Below are positions 4,208 to 51,228 of a DNA stretch of 64,000 bases, piece by piece (position 1 is the first letter of the stretch; each line of letters opens with the position of its first letter). Position numbers and translations under genes: made by a program. This DNA is from a virus (taxonomy: Duplodnaviria; Caudoviricetes), in IMG/VR virus record IMGVR_UViG_3300021255_002539, positions 320,001 to 384,000 of that record. The stretch is one strand, 5' to 3'. Below the pieces are notes generated by a model. That model did no database searches, was not told the DNA's origin, and worked only from the letters and a program-made list of their open reading frames with translations.

Positions 4208-5428
4208 TCATTCTCGTGGTGGTTTTTTACACGTAAATCCTAATATACTTTGATTCAAATCATTTTTCGTATCATTTATTCCCTTTTCCAGACCTTTGCT
4301 TGCATCTGAACCAAAGTTGTTCAAACCATTGACAAATGAGTCTCGTATATTATCTTTATCTTCCTGTGTGGCGTCTTCAGGCAAAGGCTTTGGTAATTCT
4401 GTGGATATGTTACCATGTTCCTGGCTATATTCTTCTATATCATTAATGATTTTGTTTATGCTATCTTCAGTAATGTCGCCACTAGCCAATAGATCAGCAA
4501 TATCTTTTGCAATTTCCTCAAGACCCTATAACGCTTCGTTCATTTTCTATAAGGTTTCCGATAAACCATTTATGTAGTCGATTATTGGATCATCGGGCTC
4601 AAAATATGGACACCAATCGTCAAATGAATTGAATGCCTCAAAACTAGATTCCGCACAATCCAATGTTCCATTTACAGCACCCTTCTCCAAACCAGCAACC
4701 AATCCAGTCAAAAGAGTGGTCAAACATGCGCCAATTTTAGTTGGGTCTTTGTCATATGCTATTTCGTCTGCATATTCCTTGCCAAATGAAATGAATATTT
4801 GATTTACGGTCTTTAATGTATCAACTATTTTCCCCTATTCAATAATCCACTAAAGCATTTTTAGTTTGCATTCACACTCATATGGGGTGTCTGTCGTCAC
4901 ACGATATACCAAGACACCAGTTTCTATAGTCAAGTCAACTGGAAGTATCACTGTTTGTGTGCAAATTCCAGTAACTTCCCCCAAAATGTTGGATATATCC
5001 TTCAACGCATCGTATGGGTGTAGTGTTGCGGTGTCTTTTGCGAAATCCCATATATTGCCCAATGCTCGTCCAAGCCCATTAGCCACATCGCAAAAATAAT
5101 TACCCAAACCCCTTGAACTCAAGTTTCTTGAACTCAGGTTTCTTGTATTTGATTCGTCTGGATATCGTTCATTCACCAAGTCAATCAATTCTTGGGTATC
5201 GTGTTCAACTGGTTCACACCCATCCCATATATGTGGGTTTTGGTCGTATTTTTGTTGGCACATATCCAATACAGAACCGCCTATGTCATAGATATCCTTG
5301 ATTAGATTATGGGTTGTTGGCTGCCAATTTTGTTGCGCATCATTTAACTGTTGCCTAACCAATTTAAGTTGGTATTCGGGCGACAATACCGATAATTTGG
5401 TAGACTTGAATCGTTTTATGTATACCAT
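4208..5428 (-). CDS. Hypothetical protein, ~406 aa, with 4 in-frame TAG (recoded)
   Basis: ORF pieces 4850..5494 and 4208..4489 are in one frame, interrupted only by TAG; ends TGA; AT-rich; GTAAATA upstream. Confidence 0.7.
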
Positions 5429-27912: not shown

Positions 27913-29451
27913 TTATACGCCAATTCCAAATGTCTGTAAAGTCAAGTTCTTGATGTCTTTGCCCCGAAGGATTATGACATTGTTCGCCAACATACACTGG
28001 TGCTTGGCTTCCATGACTTTGCATTTCCATTCGTATTCCTCGTCAGACAAGTCTCCCTTCCAAGTCAAGTACATTTCTTCTTTTCCAGTTGATTCGTTGA
28101 TTCTGAAGAAGTTATCGCCCTTGACTTCCACTATTCTGTCACCAACAAGAAAGTCTGGATGATATGTATGATGCGTTCCTTCACAATCAAATGGAATTCC
28201 TATTGATGGTTGGTACTCGAAGGGAATGTGGTTCTCAGTCAGGAAGTCATAGACCTTGAATTCCCACGAATTCCAAAATGTCATGTCTGGGTACTTGGGG
28301 TTCGTATACCGCTTGTGTGCCTTGGATGCGAATTCATTGGATTGCGAATAATGTGAAACGCCATATTTGCGCTCACATGTTTCACATATCTTCTCCTTCA
28401 CCTCCTCTGCCTGAAACGAATACTCAACTCCAAAACGTTCCTTGCATGTCTCCCGACTTTGTTGCTTCGATGATTCCAATTGGGAAGTGAATTCAACTCC
28501 ATGCTTCTCCAAGTTGTCCCTCTTCATCTTCTCAAATATCTCTTTGGATTGAAGTGGATGCTCAACACCATGATTCGCAAGGCAAGTCGCCTTTGACTTT
28601 TCCAGCAACTCGGTGTTTTGCAGAGGATGCTCGACATTAAAGTGCAGTTTTGTCGTCTGCTTGGCCTTCTCCATGAAAACCTTGCTTTCCAACGCATGCT
28701 TGACGCCGTGGCGTTCAAGCATCGTCTCCTCAATTCTTCTTCTGATGGTTGGAGACTGCAATCCAGTTCCGCCATGCCTCTCCATGTTCGTCCTGCGTAT
28801 CTTCTCCTTCGTTTTCTCCAACCTGCATGTCGCCTGTGCCTTTTCGCGTATCTCTTTTATCTGATATGGATTCGTGACGCCGTGCCTCCTGACCATCGTC
28901 TGCCTCATCTTCTCCTGAACCTCCTTGTTTTGGCATGGATTTTTGCACCCATATCTTAGTTCGCAAGTCTTCTCAATCCTCTCACGAATCTCCTTTGATT
29001 GAAATACGGACGAAACTCCATATCTGCTCTCGCAGGTTCGTTTCAACTTGTTTTTGGTCTCATCCAACTGCATCATGTTCTTGACACCATGGAGTCTGAT
29101 GCATGTTTCCTCTCTACGCTTCACGACATCCTCATCCTTGCCCATGCATGCATAGCAGCAATGTTCCCTGAATGCCTTTTTGCGCTTGTTCCATCTAGTT
29201 GGGTTCTTCCCACATGTTTTGCAGATGGGGGCAGATTTCAACCCATGCTCAAGGCAGTACAGACGCGCCTCGAACATAATGTCTCGTTCTGCCAAGAAGT
29301 CAGTTCTGCGCTTGACCTCTCCTATTATGTTCGCGCATGCTTTTCTGAACTTATTCGGCGAATATCCAAGAGACTTGACTTGCAAAAGGAGCTCTTCGTC
29401 AGATAGTTGCTTTAGTTCGTCAGAAGTATAGTGTATAATTGACTTAGCCAT
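27913..29451 (-). CDS. Putative homing endonuclease with (K/R)(Y/H)GV helical repeats and C-terminal PD-(D/E)xK domain
   Basis: About 12 T...HGV/YGV repeats; YHPDFLV..IVEVKG. Confidence 0.75.
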   Translation of the reverse strand: MAKSIIHYTSDELKQLSDEELLLQVKSLGYSPNKFRKACANIIGEVKRRTDFLAERDIMFEARLYCLEHGLKSAPICKTCGKNPTRWNKRKKAFREHCCYACMGKDEDVVKRREETCIRLHGVKNMMQLDETKNKLKRTCESRYGVSSVFQSKEIRERIEKTCELRYGCKNPCQNKEVQEKMRQTMVRRHGVTNPYQIKEIREKAQATCRLEKTKEKIRRTNMERHGGTGLQSPTIRRRIEETMLERHGVKHALESKVFMEKAKQTTKLHFNVEHPLQNTELLEKSKATCLANHGVEHPLQSKEIFEKMKRDNLEKHGVEFTSQLESSKQQSRETCKERFGVEYSFQAEEVKEKICETCERKYGVSHYSQSNEFASKAHKRYTNPKYPDMTFWNSWEFKVYDFLTENHIPFEYQPSIGIPFDCEGTHHTYHPDFLVGDRIVEVKGDNFFRINESTGKEEMYLTWKGDLSDEEYEWKCKVMEAKHQCMLANNVIILRGKDIKNLTLQTFGIGV

Positions 29452-29587
29452 GTTCAATACCCTTTTATTGGATGTGGTCAGAGGTTGGTTGGAGAACGGT
29501 CAATTCCAATCGACCTCGTTTGTTTTCATCTATAATTATACAGTTTTTTTGTAAATATACAATGTACCAAACAAAGGTGATTAAACT

Positions 29588-41963: not shown

Positions 41964-42052
41964 TGGAGCCACAGGTCCGATTTGAACGGACGCGACCATA
42001 AAGGTGCGGGTTTACAAAACCCGTGCAATCGACCTGGCTATGCGACTGTGGC
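41964..42052 (-). tRNA. tRNA-Thr(UGU) with long variable arm
   Basis: CGGGT-TTTGTAA-ACCCG; CCA encoded. Confidence 0.75.
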
Positions 42053-42168: not shown

Positions 42169-42924
42169 TCATTTAAGTAGAAGTGAATCATTCAGAACTA
42201 TCTTGCCATCTACAAAGTCCTTATACTGTTTCTCACCAATAAAGTAGATTCTTATTCCTGGATTGTTTTCCAAGACAAGACGCATCTTTTCCTTGTCTTT
42301 GTCTGAATAATAACCCTTTACTTCAACATACTCGTTTGTATCTGGTAAGTAGAAATCTGGATTATAGGTTTTGCGTATACCATCTTTAATGTATTTCAAT
42401 GTTTTGTTCCTAATCCAATTTATACCATTTGCTGTCAATTTGTTGGCAACATTCTCCTCCCAATGACCCCTTACAGTATATTCAACACCATCTAAATTCT
42501 TCACTTTGTACCAACCAACATCTTTGAATCCCACTTTACACGAATCAAGATATTTAGAACGAATTTCAGAAAGTTTCTCCCGCGTTTCTTTGGTATGATG
42601 GAAAGTTCTTCCTTTCTGCGAGATTTTGTTTTTCTCTGCTATTTGTCTTACTTTTGTTGATGTTTCACTGGTCAATCCCTTGTTCCATGCCATTCCCTTC
42701 TTGAATCCATGTTTCTCTTTTCTGTGGATTTGCATTTCGTTTCTTGTATGAAAAAGACCTCCACAAATTGTACACTTCCAAGTGTGTTGTTGCCTATTCA
42801 CATTAAAATTGCACACATGGTGCTTTACTTGCTTCGCAATATACGAACATCTACAATGCTTGGAGCAGAACCTTCCGCTTCCATACGAGCCATCATGCTC
42901 GTTTCCACATACTTCACATATCAT
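42169..42924 (-). CDS. Free-standing homing endonuclease (Zn fingers, NUMOD3-like, PD-(D/E)xK)
   Basis: AWNKG, HTKETREKLS, YNPDFYLP...VEVKGY; AT-rich insert. Confidence 0.8.
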   Translation of the reverse strand: MICEVCGNEHDGSYGSGRFCSKHCRCSYIAKQVKHHVCNFNVNRQQHTWKCTICGGLFHTRNEMQIHRKEKHGFKKGMAWNKGLTSETSTKVRQIAEKNKISQKGRTFHHTKETREKLSEIRSKYLDSCKVGFKDVGWYKVKNLDGVEYTVRGHWEENVANKLTANGINWIRNKTLKYIKDGIRKTYNPDFYLPDTNEYVEVKGYYSDKDKEKMRLVLENNPGIRIYFIGEKQYKDFVDGKIVLNDSLLLK

Positions 42925-43489: not shown

Positions 43490-43747
43490 ATTGAAATGGT
43501 GTGAGATTCGAGGACTCTTACCCCCATTACCATCAACTTGGAATGCGGACTTGACGTCCTAATCCACATTCTGCTTGATGACCAAGCGGACTCACCGGCC
43601 GAATGGCATTCTACCAAGGAGCGACCTTGGCATTGAAACTTGGAGCCCCGATACAAGTACGACTTGATCCAATCCTCCATTACTGGGTGGGATTGACATT
43701 CCCCGTTATGGAATTACCGAAGCATGTTGAAATCGTCTATATGAAAT

Positions 43748-44688: not shown

Positions 44689-44778
44689 TGGTGTGGAACG
44701 CCGGATTCGGACCGGCAATGTCCCGTTGGGGACGCAGGATTAGGAATCCTGTCGAGTGTCCAATTGTCGCAGTCCCAC
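44689..44778 (-). tRNA. tRNA-Arg(CCU) with long variable arm
   Basis: CAGGA-TTCCTAA-TCCTG; V arm GTCCC-CAAC-GGGAC. Confidence 0.75.
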
Positions 44779-47193: not shown

Positions 47194-47379
47194 TCAAACT
47201 TCCTCGCAGAAGTGCTTGCTTATCCTGAAACCCACTCCCTTGAGTTGATACACAGGCTTGCCATCGTTTCCAGTGCATTCGCCAATCACCTTGAAAGTCT
47301 CCCCTTGGTGTTCCCTAATCCACCTCTTGAAGTCCTCTGATTGCCAGGACGCGCTTGATTCAACTACCTTTACGAACAT
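47194..47379 (-). CDS. Small hypothetical protein inside the RNA array
   Basis: AAGGAGG SD; 61 aa. Confidence 0.65.
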   Translation of the reverse strand: MFVKVVESSASWQSEDFKRWIREHQGETFKVIGECTGNDGKPVYQLKGVGFRISKHFCEEV

Positions 47380-47680: not shown

Positions 47681-48036
47681 ATTGAAAGGGAATGTTCAAG
47701 TTATCGGGCCCAGCCCTCTGGCTTCTGCAAGGTTGGAACTTGCGAGAACTTTGCTGCGTGGGGAAACCCCCTTGGCAACCGTAGCCAGTTTGTCATTTGT
47801 TAACTATGGTGGAAAGTTCCGACTTGAATGAACTTGAACAAAAGCGCACACCTACCACATGGCTGGACTCGAACCAACACCTCCGCCCTATGACGGGCGG
47901 TGTGCCACCATTACACTACACATGATTTCGACCACTGCAAGATGGTCTTGCCCGGTGTCTGGCAAAATGTTCTCAATTATACGAAATAATCACCCTCAAA
48001 TCTGTTGGCTGCAACCATGAGTTTGGGGGTTGAAAT

Positions 48037-48369
48037 TGGTGGAGCGGAGGGGAATCGAACCCCTGTCCGAAACAGTCCTGTTGGACGCTTTCTACAACAG
48101 TTTCCTATGTCATTTAACCTCTCATCATAATAGGAATCAGATGACAGGCGAGAATCCCCATTGTAATGTTCCATCGGGTGGGGAAACCAGACCCAATGGA
48201 CATGCCAGACAATGAATTCCCTACTCAAGCCCCATCTGGCGTCAGGCTTTTTTGGTAGGCTTAAGCAGCCATTCTGTAATCGTTGCCGTTTACTTGTTTT
48301 GGAATTTACGCCTCCCGGCATGGTGCTGCGTCTTTGGGATATTGCTCCGTCGAATACCTGAACCGCCCC
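48037..48369 (-). ncRNA. ssrA: tmRNA, tag (A)GNDYRMAA*
   Basis: 5' GGGGCGG..TTCGAC; 3' GGGGTTCGATTCCCCTCCGCTCCACCA with G3:U70; tag ORF 48287-48261. Confidence 0.9.
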
Positions 48370-48462: not shown

Positions 48463-48642
48463 TGGATGAGCGGGGTGGATTTGGACCACCAATGCCAAGG
48501 ACGAACAGTCGCACATTGAAAAGGAGCTACCTTTCTGGCAACTAGCGAAAACCCATGGGCATTGTGTTTTTTAACTCGCTTGTTATCGTCAATGGCTACC
48601 AGATTACGAATCCGGCGCGTTTGCCAATTCTGCTACCGCTCA
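48463..48642 (-). tRNA. tRNA-Thr(CGU)-like with ~105-nt variable-arm insertion
   Basis: Acceptor TGAGCGG/CCGCTCA-TCCA; CCGGA-TTCGTAA-TCTGG; T arm GGTGG-TCCAAAT-CCACC. Confidence 0.7.
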
Positions 48643-48645
48643 AAT

Positions 48646-48731
48646 TGGTTGCCAGTCAGGGTAACGCTCCCCGTGGGCTTTGAAACAAGTGATTTACAGT
48701 CACTCCTCGCTCTTTACGAGACTACCTGGCA
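48646..48731 (-). tRNA. tRNA-Tyr(GUA)
   Basis: AGTGA-CTGTAAA-TCACT. Confidence 0.8.
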
Positions 48732-48737
48732 ATAAAT

Positions 48738-48905: not shown

Positions 48906-48983
48906 TGGAGCTGGAAGAGGGTGACGATCCCACCACCTGCGGTTTACGAAACCGCCGCTCTACCAAGCATGAGCTATTCCAGC
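48906..48983 (-). tRNA. tRNA-Thr(CGU), canonical size
   Basis: GCGGT-TTCGTAA-ACCGC. Confidence 0.85.
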
Positions 48984-50730: not shown

Positions 50731-50850
50731 CAATTATCAAAGATCGCTTGTGATTGCCTTGCGTGGTTCAAGCAAACCTTGCTTTGCTTTAGCAAACCTT
50801 GCTTTGCTTTCACATCACATATTATACCACATTTGACTGGTATTTGTAAA
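50731..50850 (-). promoter_or_regulatory. Array promoter P2 plus boxA-like element
   Basis: CCCCC-TTTACA-N18-TATAAT, then GATCTTTGATAATTG. Confidence 0.7.
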
Positions 50851-51102: not shown

Positions 51103-51228
51103 CAATTGTCAAAGATCAATGTCCTTGTCCCTGGACACTTGGGGTCTCAACTTGATTGATTCACTTGTGAATCCTCTCGTCTCAACGCTGCATATTATAT
51201 CATATTCTCTTCATGCTTGTAAAGGGGG
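51103..51228 (-). promoter_or_regulatory. Array promoter P1 plus boxA-like element
   Basis: CCCCC-TTTACA...TGATATATAAT, then GATCTTTGACAATTG. Confidence 0.65.

Follow-up and report, generated by a model that had tools for sequence, protein, structure and literature searches.

What kind of RNA is encoded by a tRNA-shaped gene in which 108 nt separate the anticodon arm from the T arm, where a class I tRNA has 4–5 nt? This question is raised by a 180-nt gene that can be read directly from the sequence at 48642-48463, on the minus strand, of a 64,000-nt stretch of viral DNA (hereafter the window), which covers bases 320001-384000 of a 414,060-bp IMG/VR record with direct terminal repeats (G000). 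The original prediction had described this locus as a tRNA-Thr(CGU) with a structured cargo in its variable arm and had proposed that the tRNA serves as a scaffold for a functional RNA. Below, we examine the anatomy, the conservation and the genomic surroundings of the gene, and we weigh the readings that these features allow. As the best explanation we favor an unspliced chimeric RNA, in which a tRNA frame would carry a ~105-nt functional domain at the variable-arm position and in which this domain would be the selected part; we give this reading an even chance of being correct.

Anatomy of a tRNA frame with an enlarged variable arm

The sequence and the fold bore out the arms that had been listed for this gene, i.e., an intact acceptor stem with CCA together with D, anticodon and T arms (the D stem being weak), as well as a variable region of ~105 nt closed by GCCA/UGGC and GACGA/UCGUC, which measures 108 nt between the arms (table 1). 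In the acceptor stem (UGAGCGG/CCGCUCA), all seven pairs are Watson–Crick, and pair 5:68 covaries among the seven variants described below, occurring as C-G, A-U and U-G. The inner two pairs of the D stem are mismatched in six variants and Watson–Crick in L033 (GCAU/AUGC), giving two Watson–Crick pairs in the window copy versus four in L033 and a stem that is weak in most copies. The T loop starts with UCC in the window copy and reads UUCGAAU in the related phage G003, and a T loop with UCC is also found in the canonical Arg(CCU) tRNA of the window's array. The tertiary-core positions readable in the 180-nt gene include U8, A14, A15/U48, G18 G19 and U54/A58. Both the 26/44 pair and the Levitt pair position (A15/U48) are retained, and since these two are kept, the variable arm should point away from the surfaces contacted by the ribosome. 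An encoded CCA is restricted to the window copy, its place being taken by GCA, UCA or GCU in the relatives. Such a lack hardly argues for loss of function, given that 3–11 of the 27–34 canonical tRNAs per array are likewise without an encoded CCA. Additionally, the proposed layout was recovered in the unconstrained minimum-free-energy fold; at -58.6 kcal/mol (z = -2.85), this fold was more stable than each of 200 dinucleotide shuffles.

Table 1. Coordinates, in the window, of the 180-nt gene, its parts and two neighboring features of the RNA operon
Feature	Position	Strand	Basis or remark
Whole tRNA-framed RNA gene: tRNA-Thr(CGU)-like body plus variable-arm domain	48463..48642	-	Sequence, fold, covariance model
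Acceptor stem 5' strand UGAGCGG, U1-A72, G2-C71	48636..48642	-	7 pairs with 48467-48473
D arm GCAG-AAUUGGCAA-ACGC with G18 G19	48617..48633	-	G10-C25 and C11-G24 invariant
Anticodon arm CCGGA-UUCGUAA-UCUGG	48599..48615	-	Anticodon CGU at 48608-48606; 3/5 stem pairs compensatory
Variable-arm domain	48491..48598	-	Consensus fold and pair counts
Invariant 21-nt block CCCAUGGGUUUUCGCUAGUUG	48539..48559	-	Identical in 7/7 variants
Invariant 13-nt block AAGGUAGCUCCUU	48521..48533	-	P4 tip hairpin, loop UAGCU; identical in 7/7 variants
T arm GGUGG-UCCAAAU-CCACC	48474..48490	-	5 pairs, 100% paired across variants
Acceptor stem 3' strand CCGCUCA, discriminator U73, encoded CCA	48463..48473	-	Sequence
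Nearest upstream sigma-70-like promoter of the RNA operon	50821..50850	-	11/12 consensus
Canonical tRNA-Thr(CGU)	48906..48983	-	ARAGORN; Rfam tRNA 45.3 bits; G1-C72 and C2-G71 present

Within the variable arm, P1 (GCCA/UGGC) leads through a 2x2 internal loop into P2 (GACGA/UCGUC), which opens into a three-way junction with the predicted helix P3 and with P4. The extra arm is placed between positions 45 and 48, with UA before P1 and AUU after it. The longer of the two invariant blocks, CCCAUGGGUUUUCGCUAGUUG, covers the P3 loop with the palindrome CCCAUGGG, the 3' strand of P3 and the start of P4, and it is unique in the window even at three mismatches. In the P4 tip, the stem-closing pair (alignment columns 111:125) changes from A-U to G-C in the related phage G002. 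The two invariant loops of the domain are both palindromic (CCCAUGGG, and AGCU within the loop UAGCU), a property that, judged from the letters, would allow loop–loop dimerisation.

Two other candidate features of the insert were rejected. An intrinsic terminator flagged by a scan at 48543-48525 is contradicted by a C-to-G change in column 106 that disagrees with its stem and is compensated in the competing P4. A micro-ORF was also discarded, the sole conserved frame being MGFR-stop with no ribosome-binding site, and the upstream ATG not being conserved. Elsewhere in the array, a unit at 43497-43634 (minus strand), bounded by TTTCAA-type spacers and ending in ACCA, has a hairpin, CCAAGG-UCGCU-CCUUGG, similar to the tip of the domain (AAGG-UAGCU-CCUU), although one-mismatch matches of this kind arise by chance ~0.8 times per window.

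Distribution, covariation and operon context

A search with the DnaB helicase provided three related phages, i.e., G001 (201 kb, 48% complete), G002 (434 kb) and G003 (418 kb), and the gene is present in G003 and G002. With the fragments recovered from IMG/VR and JGI metagenomes by pattern scanning, the total came to seven distinct sequences (alignment A2). All seven variants fall in a single clade of ~400-kb phages and their metagenome fragments, and the gene is single-copy in the 414-kb G000 and in each relative. At the syntenic site of G001, the flanking Phe and Tyr genes are present and the 180-nt gene is absent; the gene is therefore dispensable for at least one relative, itself a 48%-complete genome. 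No homologues were detected in the GenBank phage collection or, by pattern scan, in 185,579 prokaryote genomes. Three differently anchored pattern scans of IMG/VR returned the same contigs only, a junction-pattern scan gave no match, a 16-mer scan added two chance hits that were both rejected by the covariance model described below, and the DnaB helicase profile search yielded no further large relatives. The family is confined to one phage clade.

The gene escapes the usual detection tools. In the window, ARAGORN reported 27 tRNAs and a tmRNA, and neither this program nor the Rfam tRNA model at its gathering score produced a call on the 180-nt gene, for which the best partial match to Rfam tRNA (RF00005) reached 13.5 bits versus a cut-off of 29. 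When the domain was deleted in silico, ARAGORN called a tRNA-Thr(cgt) in six of the seven variants, the window copy included. The families of Rfam 15 gave no match to the gene, whether in the window at gathering scores, in the array at E up to 10, or in an isolated 221-nt stretch, and no self-cleaving ribozyme family matched this same stretch at E up to 10. The covariance model R1, derived from alignment A2, scored 215.9 bits on the window gene and 174–215 bits on the six other variants, the next-best matches being ordinary tRNAs at 44 bits or less. Standard tRNA finders, as this case indicates, miss a class of conserved genes within phage tRNA arrays.

Compared with the G000 copy, the gene is 89% identical in G003 and about 79–80% identical in G002. 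For syntenic tRNAs between these phages, the corresponding values are 54–74% for Tyr, Ile, Met and Leu(CAG), and 100% versus G003 and 68% versus G002 for Phe. Across the seven variants, the mean pairwise identity of the insert (84%) is close to that of the tRNA body (87%), and 91.8% of cells are paired in the proposed structure. Seven pairs are changed on both sides: the anticodon stem accounts for three, P4 for two, and the acceptor stem and P1 for one each. Those of the domain correspond to alignment columns 48:152, 106:135 and 111:125. None of 500 column shuffles reached the observed paired fraction, double-change counts or covariation score, and sliding the pairing partners by 1–3 columns lowered the paired fraction to 37–53%. 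The small number of covariation events stems from a small and shallow family (seven variants, 80–93% identity), in which much of the domain is simply invariant. Homologue covariation had been proposed as a check on this locus, with the idea that an insert absent or unconserved in relatives would speak against a function; the analysis instead revealed seven compensatory pairs and an insert kept in all seven variants, conserved to the point of the 21-nt and 13-nt invariant blocks.

In G000, the gene is part of a ~9.5-kb minus-strand tRNA/tmRNA operon, with promoter-like sites at 51223, 50850 and 45242 (11/12 consensus match) and a strong terminator at 41710-41687. Short TTTCAA-type spacers part the units of this operon, and they supply the sole recurrent word in a comparison that found no handle common to the 180-nt RNA and the other array units. 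A gap of 3 nt separates the start of the gene from the terminal ACCA of a Tyr-like unit, tRNA-Phe follows 7 nt beyond its end, and a true tmRNA (85 bits, Rfam) lies at 48037-48369, 94 nt downstream in the operon. The ordinary tRNA-Thr(CGU) that had been placed ~260 nt away was recovered by ARAGORN at a distance of 264 nt. No CCA-adding enzyme, class IIa synthetase or SmpB is encoded in the phage genome.

The unit directly upstream of the gene, at 48646-48732 (minus strand), resembles tRNA-Tyr(GUA) and ends in ACCA; it is missed by ARAGORN and Rfam, has a non-canonical T loop and a D loop without GG, and is only 54% identical to the ARAGORN-called tRNA-Tyr at the equivalent site of G003. A ~125-nt unit ending in CCACCA and bounded by TTTCAA spacers (L011:1368-1503, L012:1368-1505 and L013:1577-1712, all on the minus strand) is 93% identical across G001, G002 and G003, where it sits between tRNA-Phe and the variable-arm tRNA (tRNA-Tyr in G001), and it is absent from G000, where Phe directly follows the 180-nt gene. 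An ORF of ~60 codons with an AGGAGG ribosome-binding site was observed inside the RNA operon, between tRNA-like units, at 47195-47378 (minus strand). Proteins of the Endonuclease-I/DUF7487, homing-endonuclease type are encoded at 42169-42924 and 27913-29457 (both minus strand), one of them inserted between tRNA genes of the array. Other tRNA-like genes have 6-nt anticodon loops, for which ARAGORN reports 2-base "anticodons"; one lies at 47853-47926 (minus strand) of the window and another in G002 (L037:10585-10681), the latter with 97 nt and a long variable arm. Hairpin variable arms were likewise seen in class I tRNAs, i.e., Thr(UGU) of 89 nt and Arg(CCU) of 90 nt in the window (41964-42052 and 44689-44778, minus strand) and the 91-nt Thr(CGU) and Thr(UGU) of G002 (L037:4711-4801 and 4808-4898). 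These long arms on Thr and Arg class I tRNAs make enlarged variable arms a habit of this phage clade.

Decoding, splicing and neutral drift as alternatives

The 180-nt gene might first of all be a working tRNA-Thr(CGU) that reads ACG, with the giant arm as an accessory, e.g., a handle for a phage factor or a shape that escapes host tRNA-attacking enzymes. We consider this possible, though on balance doubtful. The complete cloverleaf, accepted as Thr(cgt) in six of the seven variants after arm removal, is consistent with such a role, as is the U73 common to the gene and to the canonical Thr tRNAs of these phages. The loop UUCGUAA is the same as in the canonical Thr(CGU) tRNAs of the window and of G002, and it stays unchanged in six of the seven variants though the stem beneath it covaries, a pattern compatible with a ThrRS or decoding role that these lineages have retained. 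Long variable arms, moreover, also occur in other class I tRNAs of these phages, and an engineered 183-nt V-loop fusion tRNA has been found to be charged and active in translation (PMC5397188). On the other side, a canonical tRNA-Thr(CGU) is already present in every complete genome of the clade, and the 180-nt copy is therefore redundant for decoding, as had been suspected from the window. The G002 lineage, furthermore, has no 7-nt Thr loop and has kept the arm; its anticodon arm reads CCACC-GCUGAU-GGUGG, a compensated 5-bp stem with a 6-nt loop, and both domain and frame are maintained. Since G002 lost the Thr loop and kept the domain, the function of the family as a whole cannot be ACG decoding. 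The acceptor end may also speak against this role. In E. coli and Thermus, ThrRS identity comprises the anticodon G35 U36 along with G1-C72 and C2-G71. The Thr anticodon (G35 U36) occurs in six of the seven variants. The acceptor pairs are U1-A72 and G2-C71, in contrast to the G1-C72 and C2-G71 used by bacterial ThrRS, and the seven canonical Thr tRNA sequences of these phages all start with G1 and C2. In general terms, it is acceptor pairs together with the anticodon that make up the identity set (PMC9976931). The tRNA body is at most 71% identical to any isoacceptor in the four arrays, and it is the sequence of the arm, not its mere presence, that is invariant over stretches of 21 and 13 nt. 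Some tRNA activity may be retained in most lineages.

An ordinary second tRNA-Thr(CGU) would also result if the insert were spliced out of the transcript as an intron of some unknown kind, and in favor of this the removal of the insert leaves an ARAGORN-accepted tRNA with a 4–5-nt variable loop. Precedent exists in archaea and in some algae, which have tRNA introns outside the anticodon loop. We nonetheless judge an intron very unlikely. With 105 nt, the insert is too short for group I or II, as had been stated from the outset, and it lies between the anticodon and T arms rather than in the anticodon loop; it falls short of a group I core of ~200 nt or more, and neither Intron_gpI nor any other family matched it at E up to 10. 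No bulge–helix–bulge is found at the boundaries in all variants, a permissive scan giving 3–11 chance hits per sequence, and the phage genome is without the splicing endonuclease (PF01974) and without the RtcB ligase. The spliced product would duplicate a tRNA that the phage already has, and in G002, where the insert is nonetheless conserved, splicing would leave no usable tRNA. A further reading is that of a pseudogene, a neutrally drifting tRNA gene disrupted by a mobile or chance insertion, which would go along with the failure of tRNA finders to call the gene, the weak D stem, the encoded CCA that is not conserved and the absence of the gene from G001. We find it scarcely credible, given that conservation exceeds that of most neighboring functional tRNAs, that compensatory changes affect both frame and insert, that the gene is single-copy in the genome and its relatives with no target-site duplication, and that canonical tRNAs of the same arrays can also be without the encoded CCA. 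A miniature mobile element was rejected too, there being one copy in G000 and one per relative, with flanks (UA/AUU) that display no duplication.

The 180-nt RNA as a candidate scaffold

Under the reading that we favor, a tRNA frame carrying a selected domain, the gene would be transcribed as part of the ~9.5-kb tRNA/tmRNA operon of the phage, and its RNA would be released like its neighbors, by an RNase P cut before U1 and by 3' trimming. Host CCA addition would then be needed for most variants. The 180-nt RNA would fold into the L-shape of a tRNA, and the three-way-junction domain would project sideways from this L, at the place taken by the long arm in class II tRNAs. Selection would act on the domain and on the frame that presents and stabilises it, and not on ACG decoding. 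The tRNA frame would contribute processing signals and stability, the RNA would persist unspliced as a ~180-nt species, and the domain would most likely dock a protein or another RNA. The part of the scaffold proposal that stood is that the insert behaves as a selected structured domain (seven variants, compensatory pairs) with a complete tRNA body around it. The specific roles once suggested for it fared less well: in target prediction for an antisense or sponge RNA, other matches in the 414-kb genome were only 14–17 nt long, at chance level, and no known RNA family in Rfam matched the insert that would point to an aptamer.

One special case of the scaffold reading, which we rate as unlikely, is a Y-RNA-like partner of the phage Ro60 (TROVE) protein, in which Ro60 would dock at the helix that closes the domain, the tRNA body being the counterpart of the tRNA-like module of YrlA. 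The phage encodes a 552-aa TROVE protein (PF05731, 73.5 bits), as do G002 and G003, which carry the RNA. In the 414-kb genome no YrlA-type RNA was found (best 21.5 bits versus a cut-off of 69), so that the expected RNA partner of Ro60 is missing. The YrlA model (RF02553) gave no match covering the 180-nt gene, and no Rfam Y RNA was detected near the TROVE gene in the 30 kb from 8.7 kb upstream to the record end. Bacterial Y RNAs are tRNA mimics, one of which is cut by RNase P and receives CCA and one of which is co-transcribed with a tRNA (PMC4201824). Their Ro-binding motif has been described as GNCGAAN0-1G or GGUCCGA on the 5' strand of a stem (PMC4201824), and the 5' strand of P2 contains GACGAU, close to GNCGAA and invariant in the seven variants. 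This match, however, covers five of six positions, one of them N, and is about at chance level, with ~1 chance occurrence expected in this length. Distance argues in the same direction. In published cases, the Y RNA is encoded no more than 4 kb from the Ro60 gene and on the same strand, whereas the distance between the 180-nt gene and TROVE is ~24 kb in G000, 22 kb in G002, and 62 kb, with opposite strands, in G003. A handle common to other array RNAs is lacking. A candidate handle motif, ACAGCAA, was not enriched (13 matches versus 10.5 expected), and none of its matches falls in the 180-nt RNA. Co-occurrence, although 3/3, concerns one clade, in which G001 gives no information, its contig stopping short of the syntenic TROVE position. 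The TROVE gene itself is located at 392701-394359 of G000 (L054:8701-10359, minus strand), outside the window and beside a Cpn60-family chaperonin gene; the TROVE and Cpn60 genes are each preceded by TGTATAAT and by a similar leader (TAGRATGTWGCSAGTGGTGA) able to form a long-range stem.

By analogy with engineered fusions, the 180-nt RNA could even be charged and accepted by EF-Tu and the ribosome with its domain docking a phage protein, for which the orphan Ro60 homologue would be the obvious candidate, a combination that we hold to be decidedly unlikely. If true, a tRNA fusion of natural origin would be tethering a partner to the translation machinery, and a third tRNA-derived design of Y RNA would have evolved independently. 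Should the RNA accumulate unspliced, no other natural variable arm on a tRNA frame would come near it in size, and the tRNA-scaffold and V-loop fusion designs of RNA engineering would have a counterpart in nature. The RNA also offers a short candidate for the role of non-tRNA units in the tRNA operons of giant phages, as well as a candidate partner for a phage Ro60 protein without a recognisable Y RNA.

Among known systems, the 180-nt RNA falls outside standard tRNA models, class II tRNAs with their single-hairpin arm, intron-bearing tRNAs, YrlA and tmRNA. Like tmRNA, it has a tRNA-like frame of acceptor and T arm in which a large insertion parts the D region from the T arm. In contrast, tmRNA has no anticodon arm and possesses the G3-U70 alanine identity, pseudoknots and a tag reading frame, whereas the 180-nt RNA has A3-U70, a full anticodon arm, no credible reading frame and no RF00023 match. 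The structured phage RNAs GOLLD and ROOL (Kretsch et al. 2025, PMC12286853) are similar in being of unknown function and near tRNA clusters, and GOLLD sometimes has tRNAs embedded in a linker (PMC12286853). These RNAs, however, measure 500–800 nt or more and hold a tRNA inside a big RNA, while here a small domain sits inside a tRNA, and neither the GOLLD nor the ROOL family of Rfam gave a match. The YrlA/Yrn1 Y RNAs (PMC4201824; RF02553) resemble our RNA in pairing a tRNA shape with helix-based modules, with a Ro60 gene in the genome, and links to tRNA operons and to enzymes of tRNA processing exist in both cases. In YrlA the tRNA is permuted, with the RNA termini in the Ro-binding stem, at the position of the anticodon stem, and with a closed acceptor stem; unlike it, the 180-nt RNA has an open acceptor end, bears its extra module in the variable arm and is not encoded beside the Ro60 gene.

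The closest likenesses are found in class II tRNAs and in designed molecules. In the class II tRNAs (bacterial Leu, Ser and Tyr; Sec), as in the 180-nt RNA, the core gives off an additional helix between positions 45 and 48. Their natural arms are single hairpins of ~10–25 nt, whereas here 105–108 nt form a three-way junction with invariant blocks, and the anticodon is that of Thr, a class I tRNA. Our literature search found no natural tRNA with a variable arm of comparable size. The engineered V-Spinach, in which a ~100-nt aptamer was placed in the V loop of tRNA-Tyr, is a 183-nt molecule that is stable, charged and able to translate (Masuda et al. 2017, PMC5397188). Only insertion into the V loop gave an RNA that was stable in cells, D- and T-loop insertions not being tolerated, and according to its authors the fusion exceeds any naturally existing tRNA in length and is of a kind that ribosomes had never met (PMC5397188). 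The two RNAs share a folded RNA of ~100 nt in the V loop and nearly the same length (183 versus 180 nt). They differ in that V-Spinach is man-made, whereas the 180-nt RNA occurs naturally and is conserved, with a domain that does not correspond to an aptamer of known ligand. A folded domain of ~105 nt in the variable loop of a tRNA is so far known only from engineered tRNA fusions, and by analogy the 180-nt RNA may be likened both to a class II tRNA taken to the extreme and to those engineered V-loop fusions.
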